Shown: piece by piece, positions 1 through 10,838 of the stretch | Layout of the letters: the number at the start of each line of letters is the position of its first letter | Numbering within the stretch: the first letter of the stretch is position 1 | Source of the DNA: an uncultured virus (IMG/VR IMGVR_UViG_3300025466_000001) | Lineage: Duplodnaviria; Heunggongvirae; Uroviricota; Caudoviricetes | Direction: 5' to 3' (one strand) | Virus record (IMG/VR): IMGVR_UViG_3300025466_000001 | Length of the DNA: 20,000 nucleotides | Program-made: the position numbers and the translations under genes | Notes under the pieces: generated by a model | The model's input: only the letters and a program-made list of their open reading frames with translations | Told to the model about the DNA's origin: nothing | Database searches by the model: none

Positions 1-74
1 AACTCCATGATGAAGCCGTCTTTTTTGTATGCAACTACGAAGCCTACGGGATTGCGTTTAGATTGGTTTAGCAT
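1..74 (-). CDS. 5' part of a leftward hypothetical gene (MLNQSKRNPVGFVVAYKKDGFIME...), truncated by the window edge
   Basis: Minus-strand ATG at 74-72 preceded by AAGGAG-TAATACC; the frame is open to position 1. Not in the ORF track because it is truncated. Confidence 0.7.
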   Translation of the reverse strand, partial: MLNQSKRNPVGFVVAYKKDGFIME

Positions 75-142
75 GGTATTACTCCTTAGTGTGTTGTGAA
101 TTGACAGAATACTTAACTGCGAAGAAGCCTCGCCCTTCCGCA

Positions 143-562
143 TTACTTGGCGATCTTTGTCAAAAATGCTTTGCGTTGTGCAACTGTGAGAGCTTTGAAT
201 TGTGTAAGTAACTTAGCAACTGGGTCAGGCTTCTTGGCTGCCTTTGGTTTCGTGGAGGTTTTCTCCACTTGGCTTGGCATATAGTATTTGAGCATAGCCC
301 TTGCACATTCACTCGCATCTGTACCACCATTCTTTTTAGACTCAAAGCCTAGCGAGCCTGTGTAAGAACCTTTGGTAATCTCAATCGTGGCTACCTTCTT
401 CTTGATACTGATGAGCCTTGCTATGTTGCTCCGTACTTCTAGCTGTGCCTCGACCTTCATAGCGTTAAATACAGGTGCAAACTTCTGCATGGCATCACCG
501 AGATTAAAACCTGATTCAATGTGTTGCTCTACTGCATTGAGATAGTTAGTAACTTGTTTCAT
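143..562 (-). CDS. hypothetical early-region protein, 139 aa, Lys-rich C-terminus
   Basis: ORF track; RBS AAGGAG-CAATACC-ATG nearly identical to that of the gene at 74; no recognisable domain. Confidence 0.75.
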   Translation of the reverse strand: MKQVTNYLNAVEQHIESGFNLGDAMQKFAPVFNAMKVEAQLEVRSNIARLISIKKKVATIEITKGSYTGSLGFESKKNGGTDASECARAMLKYYMPSQVEKTSTKPKAAKKPDPVAKLLTQFKALTVAQRKAFLTKIAK

Positions 563-624
563 GGTATTGCTCCTTCGTTTGTGTAGTTAATTAAGTATGT
601 GCCGTTACTACCAAGCACAACTCT

Positions 625-655
625 ATTATACCATATGGCTACTATCCGTAGTAGC
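625..655 (-). promoter_or_regulatory. leftward extended -10 promoter with a palindromic operator-like site over the -35 region
   Basis: Minus strand reads TGG-TATAAT (plus ATTATA 625-630). Perfect inverted repeat GCTACTA-tccg-TAGTAGC at 638-655. Confidence 0.6.
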
Positions 656-673
656 TTTGAGCCATTCCTTTGA

Positions 674-696
674 CCCCACCCATCCCCCATCCCCCC
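674..696 (-). other. potential G-quadruplex-forming tract
   Basis: Minus strand GGGGGG-AT-GGGGG-AT-GGG-T-GGGG: four G-runs of 3 or more with 1-2 nt loops. Confidence 0.55.
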
Positions 697-862
697 AAGT
701 TTCGACCATGCCCCGCTCGGCACTAGATCATTGTTTCGCAGGCGCAAACCAAAAAATGTCAAAATTTTGTAAAAAAATCCAAGGGTCTATGTCAAATCTT
801 AGACAAAAACATTATAAAAATTCTTAGCAAATTTCGGACAAGACCTCCCAGAAAAAACGCTG

Positions 863-875
863 TAACCTTATGATT
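863..875 (-). promoter_or_regulatory. IHF-like binding site
   Basis: Minus AATCATAAGGTTA versus the IHF consensus WATCARNNNNTTR (one mismatch), with an A/T tract on its 5' side. Confidence 0.35.
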
Positions 876-950
876 ACAAAAAATAAAGCCGTGCAAACAT
901 ATGACATGAGGTAAAAGTTATGTAAAAAGGATAAACCTACATAAGATTGT

Positions 951-1250
951 TATAAAAAAGTTTCCCAGTAGTGCCTATAGGTATCAAAACAACAAAACAA
1001 TTCCAACCTATAGGTATAAAAAAGTTTCCCGAACGGGAAGAATTGATAAAAAAGTGTGCAAAAGTAAAAAAATATTCCCGAACGGGAAAGTTTGTAAGAA
1101 AAAGTAATGACTCATAAATGAGTCCATATAGGGGTTAAAGCTTTATTTATGAGTCAACCAAAGAGCGCATAAACTCAACGACGTATACAAAATGTCAACA
1201 AATCTGCGCATATCCCCCAAACATGTCTACAAAACTGCAATTACTATACA
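951..1250. repeat. array of duplicated palindromic/operator-like motifs separated by A-tracts
   Basis: TATAAAAAAGTTTCCC x2 (951-966, 1015-1030); CCTATAGGTAT x2 (974-984, 1007-1017); TTCCCGAACGGGAA x2 (1026-1039, 1075-1088); GACTCATAAATGAGTC (1109-1124) plus a 12-bp inverted repeat 1108-1119/1145-1156; ATGTCWACAAA x2 (1192-1202, 1223-1233). Confidence 0.8.
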
Positions 1251-1275
1251 TACCAAAAACTGTCTAGTAACAATG

Positions 1276-1304
1276 TTGCACTGCACCATAAAACAAATTA
1301 AAAT
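1276..1304 (+). promoter_or_regulatory. sigma70 promoter with an overlapping PhaR-type box
   Basis: TTGCAC (1276-1281)-N17-TAAAAT (1299-1304). TGCACTGCACCA (1277-1288) fits the PhaR consensus TGCRNYGCASMA as recalled for Bradyrhizobium. Confidence 0.65.
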
Positions 1305-1352
1305 GGACCCAAAGGCTCCATAAGGGAACCGCACTAACCTAAAGGAAATAAA

Positions 1353-1487
1353 ATGAACGAACTATTCAAAGAGTGGGACAAAGCGTATCAACAAGTACAG
1401 AACGTACTAGAGGCGGTAAAGCAAGGGAATGAGTTTTGGTTAAACCACTACATCTCTTCTGTTAAAGAACTTTTCAAAACCAAATAA
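1353..1487 (+). CDS. 44-aa amphipathic helical microprotein, possibly phasin-like (MNELFKEWDKAYQQVQNVLEAVKQGNEFWLNHYISSVKELFKTK)
   Basis: AAAGGA RBS upstream of ATG 1353, TAA at 1485-1487, promoter upstream and hairpin downstream; hydrophobic residues in an i/i+3/i+4/i+7 pattern. Below the ORF-track size cutoff. Confidence 0.7.
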   Translation: MNELFKEWDKAYQQVQNVLEAVKQGNEFWLNHYISSVKELFKTK

Positions 1488-1520
1488 AAAAAAACCCCCG
1501 GGCGTTTTAAGTCCGGGGGC
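1486..1520 (-). terminator. intrinsic terminator on the minus strand; the hairpin may also end the convergent plus transcript
   Basis: Plus A9-CCCCCGGGC-gttttaa-GTCCGGGGG, which reads as a GC stem followed by U9 on the minus strand. Confidence 0.7.
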
Positions 1521-1571
1521 ACAACTCACGTAACCGATGGCACAACGAAAGGAGAAGTAAAACCACCGGTA
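1486..1571 (-). ncRNA. candidate ~85-nt sRNA with an anti-SD loop
   Basis: Bounded by a minus-strand promoter and terminator; stem ACCGGUGGU/GCCAUCGGU encloses a loop containing UUCUCCUUUCG; no RBS-led ORF seen inside. Confidence 0.55.
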
Positions 1572-1577
1572 AGAAGA

Positions 1578-1628
1578 ATTGTAAAGTTTTGGCTGCGGAT
1601 TGTAAAGTTAAGCCCCGATAATTGTAAA
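1578..1628 (-). promoter_or_regulatory. tandem leftward sigma70 promoters built from three ATTGTAAA repeats
   Basis: ATTGTAAA at 1578, 1599 and 1621. Minus TTTACA (1606-1601)-N17-TACAAT (1583-1578) and TTTACA (1628-1623)-N18-TACAAT (1604-1599). Confidence 0.6.
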
Positions 1629-1650
1629 AAAAGAAAATGTGTAATAAAAT
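1622..1650 (+). promoter_or_regulatory. rightward promoter of the packaging/head operon
   Basis: TTGTAA (1622-1627)-N17-TAAAAT (1645-1650), followed by a small hairpin CGCGG-attcc-c-CCGCG (1660-1675). Confidence 0.5.
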
Positions 1651-1693
1651 ACACAAAATCGCGGATTCCCCCGCGCAACAGAAAGGGTTTTAT

Positions 1694-2317
1694 TTGATCT
1701 TAGATCATTTAGTTTCAGCTGCAGCCGCTGACTTCGCTCCGGAAACACTACCGGACGGGGATTTGTTCGTCCCTGTAAAAGACCTATCTGTAAAAGAAAC
1801 CATAGATGCGCAGGTAAACACTGCCGACTGGCTCAAATCTATTACCGAAGATGACGACGAGGTACTAGACCGCGCCCAAGAACAACGTGTAGGCGAAGCA
1901 TTCGGTGCGCTAATCACGCAAAGCCCTGATACAAAAGAAAGATTCCTAGAGCTTGAGCTCCCAGAAGAAGTAAAGTCTGCCGTTTCCATGGTGACTGCCT
2001 ATCAATGGAAGTTTGTAGAGCAAGCACAAGAGCTACGAAGCATGAGCGTAGCCAAGATTGTTAAAGAAACCGACCACCCAGATGCAAGAATACGCTTAAA
2101 GGCGTTGGAATTGTTGGGAAAAGTCACAGAAGTTGCCCTGTTTACGGACAGAGTTGAAGTTAAGAAGACTGAACTAAGTGATGAAGAGTTGGAAAAACAA
2201 ATTAAAAAGAAACTTGAGAAGTACATGGGCGTGGTTGAGGTAACTGAGATTAAAGAAGAAGACATTGAGGACGTGGGAATAGTGAAAGTCATCAAAGCTG
2301 AGCCCCGCGACGAATGA
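1694..2317 (+). CDS. putative terminase small subunit
   Basis: Directly upstream of and overlapping terL (ATGA); helical segment RLKALELLGK is typical of TerS-like proteins. Start placed at TTG 1694 (after AAAGGG) because ATG 1637 lies inside the predicted promoter. Confidence 0.6.
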   Translation: MILDHLVSAAAADFAPETLPDGDLFVPVKDLSVKETIDAQVNTADWLKSITEDDDEVLDRAQEQRVGEAFGALITQSPDTKERFLELELPEEVKSAVSMVTAYQWKFVEQAQELRSMSVAKIVKETDHPDARIRLKALELLGKVTEVALFTDRVEVKKTELSDEELEKQIKKKLEKYMGVVEVTEIKEEDIEDVGIVKVIKAEPRDE

Positions 2318-3834
2318 AAACAGAAAGTCTAAGCCCAGAAGAAGCAATGGCTGCCAGAATGGCACTAAAAGATATGACGACTGTGGAAAAAGCGGCTTTC
2401 CTAGAAGAATTAAACGAAAAAGAACGCCGTGCCCAGCTAAAAAAAGCACAAGACGACCCAATTGAGTTTGCCAAGTACGTGTATCCGGGTTTCAAAGTGG
2501 GGCCCCACCACCGCAAGCTAGCTAAAATCTTCGAGGACGTCATTGCGGGGAAGAAAAAGCGCGTAATCATAAACATTGCACCACGTATGGGCAAATCAGA
2601 ATTTTCGTCCTACCTCTTTCCGGCATACTTCCTAGGTAAATACCCTGACAAAAAGATTATTATGGCGACCCACACTGCTGGCTTGTCAGAAGACTTTGGT
2701 CGTAGGGTACGAAACCTAATTGATGGAGAAGATTACCATGAAGTATTTCCCGGAACCGTTGTTGCTGATGATCAAAAAGCCGCTGGTAAGTGGAGTACTG
2801 GTGCCGGCGGCCAGTATTATGCTGTGGGTGTCGGGGGTGCTCTTGCCGGACGAGGCGCTGACCTTTTTGTTATTGACGACCCTCACTCTGAGCAAGATAT
2901 AAAAGCAAACAGCCGAGCCACGTTTGATAATGCGTGGTCTTGGTTTCAGACTGGCCCGTTGCAGCGTTTGATGCCGGGTGGTGCGATTATTGTCATTATG
3001 ACAAGGTGGTCGCTTGTTGATTTGACTGGCCGGTTGGTGAACTTCACCATACAAAATCCCGAAGCAGAACCATGGGAGGTAGTAGAGCTGCCAGCCATCA
3101 TGCCAAACGGGAAAAGTCTGTGGCCTGAGCAGTGGCCTCTAGAACAGTTAGAAGCTAAAAGACTTCAGATGGACCCACGGTACTGGAACGCCCAGTACAT
3201 GCAGAACCCCACCGGGGATACAAGCGCCCTGATAAAACGAAGCGACTGGAAAATCTGGGAACACGAAGACCCACCGACAGTCGAGTACGTCATCCAGTCT
3301 TGGGATACGGCGTTTGAAACAAAAACCACATCTGACTATTCCGCATGCACAACATGGGGGGTTTGGTACAACGAAGAAGATAACAATTCACCCAATCTAA
3401 TTTTGTTAGATGCGTTCAAAGACCGGATGGCGTTCCCAGAATTAAAGGCTGTTGCACTGAAGCATTATCAAGAATGGAAACCAGATGCGTGTATCATTGA
3501 GAAAAAAGCGTCGGGTGGCCCGTTAATACAAGAGCTGCGCAGAATGGGGATTCCGATTCAAGAGTTTACACCTAGCCGTGGCAACGATAAAATAGCTAGA
3601 CTTAATGCGGTTTCTGACTTATTTGCGTCCGGCCGTGTTTGGATACCGGATAGGCGTTGGGCTAAAGACGTTGTGGAAGAAGTAGCAGCATTCCCTGTAG
3701 GCGAGCACGATGACTATGTGGATACGACAACGCAAGCATTACTGCGCTATAGACAGGGCGGATTTGTTAATTTAAATACGGACGAGCAAGACGACTTGAC
3801 GTACAAGTATAGAAGAAGAGCAGCATACTACTAA
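2314..3834 (+). CDS. terL: terminase large subunit
   Basis: Walker A APRMGKS, Walker B LFVIDDP, coupling motif MTRW, RNase H-like nuclease motifs QSWDTA and HDDYVD. Confidence 0.96.
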   Translation: MKTESLSPEEAMAARMALKDMTTVEKAAFLEELNEKERRAQLKKAQDDPIEFAKYVYPGFKVGPHHRKLAKIFEDVIAGKKKRVIINIAPRMGKSEFSSYLFPAYFLGKYPDKKIIMATHTAGLSEDFGRRVRNLIDGEDYHEVFPGTVVADDQKAAGKWSTGAGGQYYAVGVGGALAGRGADLFVIDDPHSEQDIKANSRATFDNAWSWFQTGPLQRLMPGGAIIVIMTRWSLVDLTGRLVNFTIQNPEAEPWEVVELPAIMPNGKSLWPEQWPLEQLEAKRLQMDPRYWNAQYMQNPTGDTSALIKRSDWKIWEHEDPPTVEYVIQSWDTAFETKTTSDYSACTTWGVWYNEEDNNSPNLILLDAFKDRMAFPELKAVALKHYQEWKPDACIIEKKASGGPLIQELRRMGIPIQEFTPSRGNDKIARLNAVSDLFASGRVWIPDRRWAKDVVEEVAAFPVGEHDDYVDTTTQALLRYRQGGFVNLNTDEQDDLTYKYRRRAAYY

Positions 3835-3843
3835 GGAATAAAG

Positions 3844-6351
3844 ATGGCAATTGATAAGGGTTTATACCAAGCACCAAAGGGTATTCAAGAACTGGCAGAC
3901 AACATGGAGCCAGATATTACTGTTGAAGTTGAAGACCCAGAAGCCGTGCATATCAATGCCGATGGCTTTGAGTTAGATATTGAAAAGATGGACGAAGAAG
4001 ATGGTTCGCCAGAATTTAACGCCAACTTAGCTGAAGACATGGATGAAGGGGAACTGACTTCCCTAGCAGCAGAATTAGCACACGATATTGATAACGATTT
4101 AAACTCCCGCAAAGATTGGGAGAAGATGTATAAAGACGGTATTACTCTGCTTGGCTTGAAGTTTGAAGAAAGAGTAGAACCATGGGACGGCGCTTGTGGC
4201 GTGTTCCATCCGATGATTACCGAAGCCGTGGTGCGTTTTCAAGCTGAAGCAATCATGGAGACTTTTCCTGCAGCTGGTCCAGTACGTACCCAGATTATCG
4301 GTAAAGAGACTCGTGACAAAGTAGAAGCAGCGCAACGTGTTGAGCAAGATATGAACTATCAGCTCACAGAAAAAATGCCTGAGTTCCGTAACGAGCATGA
4401 AAGAATGCTGTGGAATTTACCATCTGCCGGTTCCGCATTTAAGAAAGTCTACTACGATCCAAACTTAGGTCGTCAAGTTTCTATCTTTATTCCAGCAGAA
4501 GACATCATGCTCCCATACGGAGCTAGTGAAATTGCGTCATGCCATCGTGTAACACATCGCATGCGCAAGACAAAGAATGACCTGATTAAACTTCAGAACG
4601 CTGGGTTCTACCGTGACATTGAGTTAGGTGAGCCAGAAAAGTTTCAAACAGAAATTCAGGAGAAGAAAGACAAAGAGACCGGGTTTACGGCAACGTATGA
4701 TGACCGCTTTGAGTTATATGAAGCGCACGTTGACCTTGATTTACCCGGATATGAAGACTTAGGGGATGACGGCGAACCAACAGGTATTGCGCTCCCGTAC
4801 GTCGTAACGATGATTCGAGGTACCAATGAAATTCTTGCAATTCGTAGAAACTGGAAAGAGGAAGATCCGCTCTGCCTTAAACGCCAGCATTTTGTTCATT
4901 ATCAATATATCCCCGGATATGGAGCTTATGGTTTTGGTCTTTTCCATCTTATTGGTGGTTTTGCTAAGTCCGCAACTTCTATCCTCAGACAGCTGGTTGA
5001 TGCGGGTACTCTTTCCAATTTACCGGGTGGCTTAAAGTCACGTGGTCTTCGCATTAAAGGCGACGACACGCCAATCGCACCGGGTGAGTTTAGAGACGTT
5101 GATGTAGGCTCTGGCACCATTAGAGACAACATCCTCCCGTTGCCATACAAAGAACCATCAGCAGTTTTAGCTGGCTTGATGGATAAAATCATTGAAGAAG
5201 GTCGTCGTTTTGCGGCTACTTCCGATATGCAAATCTCTGATATGAGTGCTAACGCACCTGTTGGAACAACGCTTGCAATTCTGGAAAGAACCTTGAAGGT
5301 GATGTCTGCCGTTCAAGCTCGAGTACACTACGCCTTAAGACAAGAACTCAAGCTGCTTGCCGGTATTATTAGAGATTACACTGATGATGACTACAACTAC
5401 CAGCCAGAAAGCGGCGACATCTACGTCAAAAAGTCCGACTACAGTCATGTGGACGTGTTACCTGTATCCGACCCTAATGCGGCCACCTTATCTCAGAGAG
5501 TGGTCCAGTACCAAGCTGTTATCCAGTTGGCGCAGAGTGCACCCCAGATTTATAACCTTCCCGAGTTGCACAGGCAGATGCTTGACGTTCTTGGAATTAA
5601 AAACGCCGACAAATTGGTGCCTTTGGAGGATGACCAAAAGCCAAAAGACCCAGTTACAGAAAATATGAACGTGCTAAAGGGCACTCCACTCAAGGCATTT
5701 ATTTTCCAAGACCACGAAGCGCATATTGCTGTTCATCAATCTATGATGACAGACCCAATCGTTCAACAGCTTATCGGCCAAAACCCACAAGCAAACATGA
5801 TTGTTCAAGCGCTTCAGTCTCACCTTGCTGAACACGTTGGCTTTGCATACCGTCAAAAAATCGAAGAGCGTTTGGGTATTGCCCTACCTTCTCCAGATGA
5901 TGAGATGCCAGAAGCAATGGAAAAAGAAGTTAGCCGTCTCATGGCTCAAGCTGCTCCACAAGTATTGGCACAAAGCAAAGCGCTCATGGCTCAACAACAA
6001 GCTCAGCAAAACGCACAAGACCCTGTACTACAGATGCAAATGCAAGAACTCCAGCTCAAGAAGCAGGATGTCGACGCTAAAGCACAGAAAGTTCAGAGCG
6101 ATGCACAAGCTAAAGCACAAGAGTTGCAGCTCAAACAAATGGAATACCAACTCAAGAAACTTGAAGTTGAAGCCAAGATTAAGCAAGATGGTATGAAAGC
6201 TGGCGCTGAAGTAGCGGTTAAGAAAGCTCAAATTACCGAAGGCTTGGCTCGCTCCAAGGAAGCAGGTATGCGTGTTAAACAAGACGGCTTAGCATTAGGT
6301 GCCGACATAGCAATGAAACGATTACAGTCCAAAAAACCTAAAGGAGAATAA
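3844..6351 (+). CDS. portal protein with a long Gln-rich coiled-coil C-terminus
   Basis: 835 aa immediately after terL; segments GSAFKKVYYD and GFGLFHLIGG; helical tail reminiscent of the P22-type portal barrel. Confidence 0.88.
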   Translation: MAIDKGLYQAPKGIQELADNMEPDITVEVEDPEAVHINADGFELDIEKMDEEDGSPEFNANLAEDMDEGELTSLAAELAHDIDNDLNSRKDWEKMYKDGITLLGLKFEERVEPWDGACGVFHPMITEAVVRFQAEAIMETFPAAGPVRTQIIGKETRDKVEAAQRVEQDMNYQLTEKMPEFRNEHERMLWNLPSAGSAFKKVYYDPNLGRQVSIFIPAEDIMLPYGASEIASCHRVTHRMRKTKNDLIKLQNAGFYRDIELGEPEKFQTEIQEKKDKETGFTATYDDRFELYEAHVDLDLPGYEDLGDDGEPTGIALPYVVTMIRGTNEILAIRRNWKEEDPLCLKRQHFVHYQYIPGYGAYGFGLFHLIGGFAKSATSILRQLVDAGTLSNLPGGLKSRGLRIKGDDTPIAPGEFRDVDVGSGTIRDNILPLPYKEPSAVLAGLMDKIIEEGRRFAATSDMQISDMSANAPVGTTLAILERTLKVMSAVQARVHYALRQELKLLAGIIRDYTDDDYNYQPESGDIYVKKSDYSHVDVLPVSDPNAATLSQRVVQYQAVIQLAQSAPQIYNLPELHRQMLDVLGIKNADKLVPLEDDQKPKDPVTENMNVLKGTPLKAFIFQDHEAHIAVHQSMMTDPIVQQLIGQNPQANMIVQALQSHLAEHVGFAYRQKIEERLGIALPSPDDEMPEAMEKEVSRLMAQAAPQVLAQSKALMAQQQAQQNAQDPVLQMQMQELQLKKQDVDAKAQKVQSDAQAKAQELQLKQMEYQLKKLEVEAKIKQDGMKAGAEVAVKKAQITEGLARSKEAGMRVKQDGLALGADIAMKRLQSKKPKGE

Positions 6352-8444: not shown

Positions 8445-9101
8445 ATGAGCACAGTATCGGCCCCGTACGGGCTTAAACCGATTAGTTTGATCGGCGGTCA
8501 ATCCTTTACTGGCGGAACAATCCGTGAGTATTTGTTGACTACAAACAATACAGCGCCAATCTACACCGGCGACTTAGTGCAGTTAGGTGCATCCGTAGCA
8601 GGACAACCTACTGTTGTTACAGCAACCCCAACTACTAGCACTGCTGGTATCGCTGGTGTTTGCGTTGGCGTTCGCTATCAGTTATCTGGTCAGCAACTTG
8701 GCTATCCTTTGTATGCAGAGTATTTACCTGCAAACGCTGTGACTGCTGGTTACACCAACATTTTCATCCGCGTAGTAGAAGACCCAGATCAGTTGTACCA
8801 AGTACAATCTTTGGGCTCTGTAGGTTACGGCTCTATCGGTAAGACAGTTGCTTTGGCAAACTTCACTGCTGGTACAGGCTCTACAACTGGTAACAGCACT
8901 TCTGGTAACTCAGTTGTTGCATTGTCAGCTACTATTGCTAACACAAACGCGCTTGCTGTTAAGATCGTTGACTTGGTTAACTCCAGCTCTACTTTCGGCG
9001 GCAACTTCCCATCTAACCCCGGTGATGCTTATACCGACTGTATCGTTAAATTGAACTTTGGCGTACATCAGTATTATCAATCTGCTGGTACAGCTAACTA
9101 A
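8445..9101 (+). CDS. putative capsid decoration/minor capsid protein
   Basis: Gly/Thr/Ala-rich beta-type protein (APYGLKP..IYTGDLV..DPDQLYQVQ) immediately upstream of the major capsid gene. Confidence 0.55.
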   Translation: MSTVSAPYGLKPISLIGGQSFTGGTIREYLLTTNNTAPIYTGDLVQLGASVAGQPTVVTATPTTSTAGIAGVCVGVRYQLSGQQLGYPLYAEYLPANAVTAGYTNIFIRVVEDPDQLYQVQSLGSVGYGSIGKTVALANFTAGTGSTTGNSTSGNSVVALSATIANTNALAVKIVDLVNSSSTFGGNFPSNPGDAYTDCIVKLNFGVHQYYQSAGTAN

Positions 9102-9114
9102 TAAGGAGCTATAA

Positions 9115-10026
9115 ATGGCTATTTCACGTTCACAACTCCTAAAAGAGTTACTCCCGGGTCTAAACGCTTTGTTTGGTTTAGAGTACAAGCGCTATGGCGA
9201 AGAGCATAAAGAGCTCTACGAAACAGAAACTTCTGAGCGTTCATTCGAAGAAGAAACAAAACTGTCTGGTTTCTCGGCTGCTCCAGTCAAGAACGAAGGC
9301 GGTGCAATTTCTTACGATAATGCACAAGAAGCTTTCACAGCTCGCTACTCACACGAAACCATCGCTTTAGGTTTCTCAATCACTGAAGAAGCGATTGAAG
9401 ATAACTTGTATGACTCTTTGTCTGCTCGTTACACTAAAGCATTGGCTCGCGCTATGGCTTACACCAAGCAAGTTAAAGCAGCTTCTGTATTGAATAACGG
9501 TTTCTCTGGTAGCTACGTAGGTGGCGACGGTCAACCATTGTTCTCTGCTTCACACCCATTGGTTAACGGCGGTACAAACAGCAACGTTCCTCCTACATCA
9601 GTTGACTTGAATGAGACTTCTTTGGAAGCCGCTACAATTCAAATCGCTGCTTGGACAGACGAGCGTGGTCTCTTGATCGCTGCTAAACCACGCAAGTTGG
9701 TAATCCCACCAGCATTGATGTTCGTTGCAACTCGTTTGCTTGAGACTAACCTCCGTGTTGGTACCAACAACAACGATATCAACGCCATCAAAAACAATGG
9801 TACCGTTCCAGAAGGTTACACAGTTAACCACTTCTTGACCGACACAAACGCTTGGTTCTTGTTGACCGACGTTCCAAACGGCTTGAAGCACTTTGAGCGT
9901 ACACCATTGCAAAACAGCATGGACGGCGACTTCGACACAGGTAACGTACGTTACAAGTCTCGTGAGCGTTACAGCTTCGGTTGGTCTGATCCACTCGGCG
10001 CTTGGGGCTCTGCAGGTTCATTCTAA
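9115..10026 (+). CDS. major capsid protein (HK97 fold, Mu gpT-like)
   Basis: 303 aa; KNEGGAI, ITEEAIEDNLY, GGDGQPLFSASHP, KLVIPPAL, AWFLLTD, RERYSFGWSDP; strong RBS, biased codons, terminator directly after. Confidence 0.92.
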   Translation: MAISRSQLLKELLPGLNALFGLEYKRYGEEHKELYETETSERSFEEETKLSGFSAAPVKNEGGAISYDNAQEAFTARYSHETIALGFSITEEAIEDNLYDSLSARYTKALARAMAYTKQVKAASVLNNGFSGSYVGGDGQPLFSASHPLVNGGTNSNVPPTSVDLNETSLEAATIQIAAWTDERGLLIAAKPRKLVIPPALMFVATRLLETNLRVGTNNNDINAIKNNGTVPEGYTVNHFLTDTNAWFLLTDVPNGLKHFERTPLQNSMDGDFDTGNVRYKSRERYSFGWSDPLGAWGSAGSF

Positions 10027-10042: not shown

Positions 10043-10074
10043 AAAAAACCCAGCTCACAAGGCTGGGTTTTTTT
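10043..10074. terminator. bidirectional intrinsic terminator
   Basis: AAAAAA-CCCAGC-tcacaag-GCTGGG-TTTTTTT between the convergent capsid and HNH genes. Confidence 0.88.
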
Positions 10075-10405
10075 CATTGTAGTGGTGTATTCGGTGGCAG
10101 TTAGCGCATAGAACAATGCACTTTTTTATTTCTTCATAGGCTTTTTTAAACTGTCCATTACTAACTAAATTGCTTACTACGTTTTCTTTTTGGGTAGGGT
10201 CTTCGTGGTGAAAATCTAACGCCGCTGGGTGAGAAAAATCGCATTTTGCACATTTAAGTGTGCATTTAAATGTATCCCATTCTTTCTTTAATTCTTTCCT
10301 TCTAATGTTTATTTGCTCTCGACGTTCGGCATATTTGCCTAAATACTGCTTACGGCTGTACTCCGCATGTTTGGCTTTTTTTACGTTCGCGTCTTTGTAC
10401 GGCAT
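10055..10405 (-). CDS. HNH endonuclease with zinc-finger cysteines
   Basis: CAKC..LDFHH.DP..K...EIKKCIVLCANCHRIHH; probable start MPYKD at 10405. Confidence 0.85.
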   Translation of the reverse strand: MPYKDANVKKAKHAEYSRKQYLGKYAERREQINIRRKELKKEWDTFKCTLKCAKCDFSHPAALDFHHEDPTQKENVVSNLVSNGQFKKAYEEIKKCIVLCANCHRIHHYNEKNPAL

Positions 10406-10838
10406 CTGGGTGGACCTTATATTTCCAATAGATTGCGTTGCGAAAGCCCCATGGTTGTCCGGGCTGATAAATTTTGAAACCCGCACTGATTAACGAGTTC
10501 GATGACGCAGGATTTTTTGTTGTATCGGTGATTAACCAATTCCATCCTAACTTCCTAGCTTGTTTGATTCTTGCAGATATTAATCTCTTTTGTAAGCCGT
10601 GTCCAGTAAAGCCATCCATTACACCTGCTCTACATAAGTAACCTGTATCTGTCCATTTGATCGAGCGGACCATACCCGCAAAAGCGACAGGCTTTCCATC
10701 CTCCGCATACGCAATCCACCAATGACCCCTGTCCGGTTGGTACGGCGTATCCGCCGGAAGTATTTTCTTTTGTAGAAAAAGTAGTGTGGTTTGAACTGAC
10801 GGGACTCTGATGTCCACTTTTTTTATTGTAAATTTCAT
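10350..10838 (-). CDS. GNAT-family acetyltransferase
   Basis: Acetyl-CoA-binding motif A (RAGVMDGFTGHGLQKRLI) and motif B (NPASSNSLISAGF). Confidence 0.8.
   Translation of the reverse strand: MKFTIKKVDIRVPSVQTTLLFLQKKILPADTPYQPDRGHWWIAYAEDGKPVAFAGMVRSIKWTDTGYLCRAGVMDGFTGHGLQKRLISARIKQARKLGWNWLITDTTKNPASSNSLISAGFKIYQPGQPWGFRNAIYWKYKVHPDAVQRRERKKSQTCGVQP

Follow-up and report, generated by a model that had tools for sequence, protein, structure and literature searches.

A conserved predicted small RNA with an anti-Shine-Dalgarno loop, divergent from the terminase genes of uncultured freshwater phages

The region between the early and late arms of an uncultured freshwater phage genome of about 65 kb raises the question of whether a small RNA (sRNA) is encoded back to back with the terminase genes and, if so, which leaders its loop, complementary to the Shine-Dalgarno (SD) sequence, could pair with. 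The window analysed here is a stretch of 20,000 nucleotides of this genome (IMG/VR record IMGVR_UViG_3300025466_000001), to which all positions refer unless another record is named. A sequence-only reading had proposed at this site a trans-acting translational repressor that serves the early-to-late switch or lysogeny, or that targets host mRNAs. To our knowledge, few phage small RNAs have been given a function. Those treated in the accessible text of a recent review come mostly from temperate phages and have single targets (PMC12197685).

In the window, the plus strand carries a gene in the position of the small terminase subunit (terS), terL, and the portal and capsid genes, and small early genes run leftwards from 562 on the minus strand. 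The terS gene (1694..2317, plus strand) is named by position only, since it has no Pfam or PHROG match, and its likely start is a TTG at 1694 behind a conserved leader. The terL gene (2314..3834, plus strand) encodes the large terminase subunit, with 46-51% identity to HTVC023P-type and similar phages, which are the best named relatives. The DNA polymerase of G002, a record identical to the window, is not closest to those phages; the phage was therefore left outside that group and membership is not claimed. The first early gene (143-562, minus strand) belongs to a fast-changing family of 130-155 aa without Pfam or PHROG match, is preceded by an extended -10 promoter (TG-N-TATAAT near 625-633), and is a candidate host-takeover or anti-defence gene. 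Positions 690-1160 form a non-coding control or terminus region, near which the contigs of many relatives break; it includes TGTC-N8-GACA-like palindromes (756-810) that recur in relatives, two copies of TTCCCGAACGGGAA (1026 and 1075), and a ATGACTCAT-type inverted repeat (1108-1156), and a C-rich run lies at 674-696. Within the structural module, two minus-strand ORFs (10055-10486 and 10350-10838) are presumably one HNH-like and one GNAT-like, judging from motifs. Atlas and family searches gave no pointer to the host, the relatives of the capsid protein are spread over bins of many unrelated taxa, and in a scan for loop-like continuations of 16S 3′ ends none of the 80 loci returned was a 16S gene. 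Neither a tyrosine integrase nor a resolvase turned up in five near-complete relatives, which makes lysogeny unlikely.

The predicted sRNA of about 85 nt occupies 1486..1570 of the minus strand, with a putative start at its first stem. Stem 1 pairs the 5′ arm ACCGGUGGU (1570-1562) with the 3′ arm GCCAUCGGU (1541-1533) over 9 bp, two of them G-U, and its 5′ arm shows compensatory changes among relatives. It encloses a U/C-rich loop of 20 nt (1561-1542) containing CUCCUUUCGUUG, in which the anti-SD core CUCCUUU (1554-1548) is followed by the 3′ extension CGUUGU; the mean unpaired probability of this seed is 0.86. A variable single-stranded linker (1521..1532), which in many relatives holds extra UCCUU motifs and in the window none, leads to an intrinsic terminator (1486..1519) composed of a 7-bp GC hairpin (1519-1513/1501-1495) with an 11-nt loop and a run of nine U (1494-1486). 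Both the stem-loop and the GC hairpin with its U9 tail (1519-1495 and 1494-1486) lie exactly where the sequence-only reading had placed them. The plus strand has no U-run for a terminator. A plus-strand ORF of 44 aa (1353..1487) converges on the sRNA terminator; it has only two database proteins as relatives and no family match, and short ORFs like it, present in some relatives, have been gained or lost at the same spot.

The 88-nt minus strand folds at -30.8 kcal/mol (z -3.35), and only one of 200 shuffles folded equally well. The layout of a -10 box, CTCCTT, and a GC-run with U-run occurs once in the window and never in 200 dinucleotide-type resamplings. At the sequence level, the unit is stand-alone and non-coding, with its own promoter and intrinsic terminator, and in computed folds its conserved anti-SD seed is unpaired.

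Comparison of 27 distinct hairpins showed that stem 1 is kept by compensatory change. In the alignment, 85.8% of cells were paired against 71.4% in shuffles, and two-sided changes were found in 34 cells against 13. Stem covariation reached 0.50, a score of a kind that the tool itself warns is inflated by the relatedness of the sequences, against 0.26 after shuffling and 0.05-0.18 in slid registers, and none of 500 shuffles attained these values; two measures that count pairs or types were unexceptional (100 and 130 of 500 shuffles). RNAalifold recovered both helices and left the loop open. The hairpins were stabler on the minus strand, that of the RNA, in 28 of 30 distinct cases, and G-U pairs numbered 73 against 6, an excess that fixes the RNA strand. 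On the plus strand, the AAGGAG opposite the core might have been the ribosome-binding site (RBS) of a longer terS; this candidate was rejected, since in none of 43 distinct loci does a usable terS start follow in frame, in agreement with the earlier remark that the motif lacks one. The unit upstream of terS is very probably a functional RNA gene.

Regarding the promoter, the letters TTTACA-N17-TACAAT that had been read as such are present, and its two halves differ in conservation. The -10 box TACAAT (1583-1578, minus strand) lies 6-7 nt before the stem, a position conserved in 38 distinct promoter regions, and reads TATACT or TATAAT in most relatives. The putative -35 hexamer TTTACA (1606-1601, minus strand), 17 nt from TACAAT, is part of a lineage-specific repeat, TTTACAAT, present in three minus-strand copies (1628-1621, 1606-1599 and 1585-1578) and peculiar to a few lineages; a -35 hexamer with at least five of six matches was found in only 3 of the 38 regions. 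The conserved promoter part is the -10 box with a T-rich stretch upstream. Promoter-like matches within 1-5000 stand at chance level (8 found, 7.7 expected).

Back to back with the -10 box of the sRNA lies a candidate -10 box (1645..1650, plus strand) for the divergent promoter of terS and the late genes. The two boxes are 21 bp apart in 20 of the 38 promoter regions and 20-23 bp apart in 24, and the mirror box was not called in 3; in the window the distance is 61 bp because of the insertion of the TTTACAAT repeat. From this arrangement we infer co-regulation with the packaging operon, which suggests that the RNA would be expressed late. A second back-to-back TACAAT pair without a -35, perhaps of the same promoter class, was seen in the late region of G003 and G004, about 31.3-31.9 kb from terS.

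A search with terS returned 79 loci, and 69 were examined after leaving out 10 with less than 150 nt upstream. The complete unit (-10 box, stem, UCCUU(U)CRUU loop and terminator) is divergent from terS in 53 of these 69 loci, so that stem and loop are conserved as the sequence-only reading required; including the window, the carriers comprise 39 distinct sequences with terS identities of 55-100%. Among the other 16 loci, 14 have a CUCCU motif and a terminator at the same place, the motif lying mostly just 3′ of a 5′ hairpin (8 were folded). The CUCCUU core is invariant, even where it has shifted from loop to linker in distant lineages, and many relatives have two or three CUCCUU-type motifs per RNA; the loop is under selection. 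A covariance model built from 27 sequences gave matches at E<=0.01 in 39 of 45 metagenome loci, on contigs partly shared with the terS set, and found a single copy in each of five near-complete genomes. An exact 22-nt stretch of the loop had 16 matches in viral contigs, 15 of them being terS loci already known.

In five more distant phage contigs, whose capsid is 82-84% identical, neither the covariance model nor a relaxed layout scan, which recovers 7 of 8 known carriers, detected the unit. A stricter scan of the region before terL did not find it in 20 of 21 distant loci, and none was seen ahead of terL in five named HTVC023P-type phages. Searches of window positions 1300-1700 against named phages (blastn), and of the loop pattern and terS in species genomes, gave no match.

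The L041/L042 lineage has a near-type unit whose RNA layout is unchanged but which is turned round onto the strand of terS (L042 record, L189 and L190); this argues against cis-antisense action. These inverted units lie at 9010-9130 of G022 (the L042 record) and 2500-2620 of L189 and L190, ahead of a 46-aa ORF, and carry the loop variant CUCCUUUCAUUUG; among the early leaders of that phage, one has the matching CAAAUGAAAGG. A distant contig with about 35% terS identity has a possible analogue, missed by the scans, on the strand of terS (L241:1140-1250, plus strand), where TACAAT is followed by a 5′ hairpin, ACUCCUUG and a terminator. In L247 (1836-1924, minus strand; terL 74%), a 5′ hairpin comes first, followed by two anti-SD motifs in single strand and then the terminator. 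Other structured-looking units follow the sRNA terminator in some relatives: one, GGAAAGCCGAAAAA...ACATCCTTCTGCGTCGGCTTAAC, recurs in L005-L008, L013 and L014, is absent from the window, and resembles a mobile or catalytic RNA motif; the other, hairpin-rich, GTGTCCTTCACGTGGAC...GCTTCGCATACTT, occurs in the second clade (L016-L020, L033, L038-L040, L049 and L053).

What the loop would pair with was then the main question. In all 10 contigs searched, the exact complement of an 11-mer of the loop is confined to the locus, so there is no single strong target, and a perfect phage target was rejected. The sequence-only reading had singled out the leader of the gene at 562 and the SD of the gene at 74. 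The 13-bp pairing with the former (570..583, minus strand), with two single bulges, is as described, at -14.4 kcal/mol; it ranks only 8 of 34, and the SD of the latter (82..87, minus strand), with an ordinary fit, ranks 12 among the 34 same-strand genes of G002. Neither stands out as a target. For the first early gene, orthologous leaders in five relatives are perfect complements of 12-13 nt of the loop; in the window and others the match has bulges, and in most second-clade phages there is none. A single conserved target gene was rejected too, as this gene fits well in some lineages only. The leader of a second family has a 14-nt loop match in L053.

The fit appears instead as a property of a class of leaders. 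Those of the early arm (small early genes, ATPase, polymerase and helicase-like genes) are A/C-rich before AGGA, with early and replication leaders of the CAAC(G)AAAGGAGAA type, whereas late leaders are U-richer. For the window phage, the median pairing energy of the loop was -12.1 kcal/mol for 34 early-arm genes (from G002) and -8.4 for 24 late genes (from the window; p=1.3e-4). In this and the following comparisons, energies were computed without target accessibility, "early" was assigned by strand and gene content, and a simple caller supplied the gene starts. In six close genomes, which as members of one clade are not independent, early fit also exceeded late fit among leaders with an SD (p from 1.5e-6 to 3e-3). 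When the flanks were shuffled around a fixed core, leaving out genomes with fewer than five SD-bearing leaders on a strand, 0 of 100 shuffles reached the early-late difference in each of these six; the corresponding numbers were 0, 0, 0, 2, 6 and 21 in six second-clade genomes, and 7, 16 and 28 in three distant genomes, where the effect is absent. In five non-carriers, the window's loop was matched or beaten by 14, 15, 52, 86 and 92 of 100 shuffles. A raw early-over-late preference was also present in two of the five non-carriers (p 0.007), which indicates that the family at large shares part of this leader style. In carriers, the motif AYGAAAGG/AYGAAGGA was found in 35 of 495 early leaders and in 5 of 380 late ones, pooled counts that near-identical genomes inflate; among early leaders it was found in 3 of 135 from distant-type carriers (p 0.04) and 4 of 152 from non-carriers (p 0.05).

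Joint change of loop and leader is no more than suggested by the sequences. The leader at 562 is a perfect match to the loop register found in the other clade, not to that of its own, and loop against leader register on motif counts, in about two clades, was not significant (Fisher p values of 0.07 and 0.11). The fit to a phage's own seed over 7 lineages had permutation p values of 0.018 and 0.031 at two thresholds, with lineages and thresholds of our own choosing, and the own-seed z was positive in just 11-12 of 20 genomes. The second-clade seed also fitted distant genomes better, which makes that half of the contrast generic. The resemblance of the loop to early leaders could reflect an origin from an inverted leader.

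With moderate confidence, we propose that the unit encodes a late, trans-acting anti-SD sRNA that would damp translation of the early and replication arm. The RNA would be transcribed from the -10 box back to back with the terS promoter, together with the late packaging operon, and stem 1 would keep the U/C-rich loop open. The CUCCUU(U) core would pair with SD sequences, and the flanks of the loop (UUACUU 5′ and CGUUG 3′) would lengthen the duplex on A/C-rich early leaders and not on the U-rich leaders of structural genes. Such pairing would keep 30S subunits off numerous mRNAs of early and replication genes simultaneously, and ribosomes would shift to late mRNAs. Of the earlier proposal of a trans-acting repressor, the early-to-late option is the one favoured by a conserved predicted minus-strand RNA, an exposed anti-SD loop and the better early fit; the lysogeny option finds no counterpart in the five near-complete relatives (integrase or resolvase in 0 of 5). 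A more tentative extension, which we hold possible rather than probable, is that this apparently lytic family has two RBS classes, A/C-rich early and U-rich late, and that one RNA fired with the terminase promoter may turn the whole early arm off in translation, with no protein regulator.

The same RNA might have mainly host mRNAs as targets and act as a broad anti-SD repressor, in host shut-off or in silencing defence or metabolism genes, as NfeR1/AbcR or the betaproteobacterial toxic sRNAs do. We consider this rather unlikely as the main role, and it is not exclusive of early-arm damping. The invariant part of the RNA is the generic CUCCUU core, kept even in the linker of distant lineages, many relatives have two or three such motifs, no perfect phage target exists, and bacterial anti-SD sRNAs have large targetomes in the accessible text of two reports (10.1101/2025.11.14.688489; 10.1101/2024.11.19.624354). 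On the other hand, only in carriers do the flanks pair with the early arm of the phage itself better than shuffles do, and broad repression would presumably strike host machinery required for virions. A further use of the pairing would be superinfection exclusion, with the RNA blocking the first early genes that related phages bring into the cell, like the heteroimmunity of P1/P7 c4, a precedent taken from the accessible text of PMC12197685. An identical loop across the clade, facing first-early-gene leaders that match perfectly in five relatives and with bulges in the window and others, is what escape would give; however, a lysogenic state is not indicated and well-fitting leaders are found deep within the replication arm as well. 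The mechanism would be the same as in early-arm damping and only the purpose differs. We regard superinfection exclusion as improbable.

The position between divergent arms would also suit a cis-antisense RNA, or a terminator or insulator that keeps read-through out of the terS promoter; the apparent anti-SD would then be the reverse complement of a plus-strand RBS. In the L064/L072 lineages, an ATG follows the plus-strand AAGGAG by 7 nt and opens a frame of 6-13 codons, and some second-clade loci have GTG or TTG at 8-9 nt; among near loci, however, a usable in-frame start is absent (0 of 43) and the spacing to any start codon is scattered. The structure favours the minus strand, the RNA sequence is kept when the unit is inverted onto the terS strand, and the RNA starts upstream of the terS leader and points away from it. 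For the near clade this explanation is already largely refuted, and overall we give it very little credence. Just as improbable is a decoy, in place of a base-pairing RNA, that binds a protein such as S1, Hfq or a translational regulator by which the phage reads its early leaders: the U/C-rich single-stranded loop, the U tail and the lack of a perfect target would agree with it, but the conserved letters are the complement of early leaders, not a copy, and the order of the flanks matters for pairing.

In these abundant uncultured freshwater phages, an RNA family that is conserved and covaries is linked with the terminase promoter, and its seed would discriminate early from late leaders. If early-arm damping is its function, it would offer a model, open to direct testing, of how a lytic cycle is timed at the level of translation, and a natural example of an anti-SD RNA that gains specificity from the letters flanking the SD.

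No description of the phage RNA was found in the literature searched. It may be among the 10,006 unnamed candidates of Fremin 2023 (PMC10690425); its loop motifs were absent from the three supplementary files searched. Rfam gave nothing at E<=1 over the window, only sub-threshold matches on short stretches, and nothing at the gathering threshold in 12 loci except a tRNA. The Rfam C4 model had no match. The anti-hemB family RF02837 scored 16.5 and 17.2 bits on the same strand, far below its gathering threshold of 49.5; it shares the hairpin and terminator with the phage RNA and differs in context.

The c4 antisense RNA of P1/P7 is the phage precedent, a trans-acting RNA whose loops pair near an RBS and block translation, as set out in the accessible text of PMC12197685. 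The RNA described here is likewise predicted to pair near the RBS through its loop. According to the same text, c4 serves one antirepressor operon of temperate phages through dedicated a/b sites, whereas here the seed is the anti-SD itself, the apparent targets are class-wide, and no integrase was found in five genomes. The betaproteobacterial toxic sRNA family RF02278 (bdhR1, Bordetella S17S) comprises RNAs of 60-90 nt with a hairpin, an intrinsic terminator and C/U-rich single strands complementary to RBSs, for one of which, S17S, multi-target repression has been shown, as far as the accessible texts go (PMC4603805, PMC7011215, 10.1101/2024.11.19.624354). The phage RNA is similarly small, with a hairpin, an intrinsic terminator and a C/U-rich single strand complementary to RBSs. 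It is phage-encoded, while RF02278 RNAs lie on the host chromosome; the RF02278 model scored 16.4 bits in the window and 17.9 bits in L049, below the gathering threshold of 50, and the consensus 5′ UGUCUCCUCC and loop CUCCUCCU are absent from the phage RNA alignment.

NfeR1 (cuckoo, alpha-r14) and AbcR1/2 of rhizobia have unpaired anti-SD motifs that pair at the RBSs of many mRNAs, in the accessible text of 10.1101/2025.11.14.688489, which also describes them as chromosomal and alphaproteobacterial, with CCUCCUCCC in three hairpins. Unlike them, the RNA of these phages is phage-encoded, consists of one stem-loop and a terminator, has a CUCCUU(U)CGUU seed and no Rfam match, and lacks CCUCCUCCC in two or more hairpin loops, the cuckoo/alpha-r14 criterion. 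Like them, it has unpaired anti-SD motifs, often several per RNA. It is a previously unnamed sRNA family, a member of none of these groups by Rfam score, and judging from its sequence it would work in the manner of the bacterial sRNAs with an anti-SD seed.
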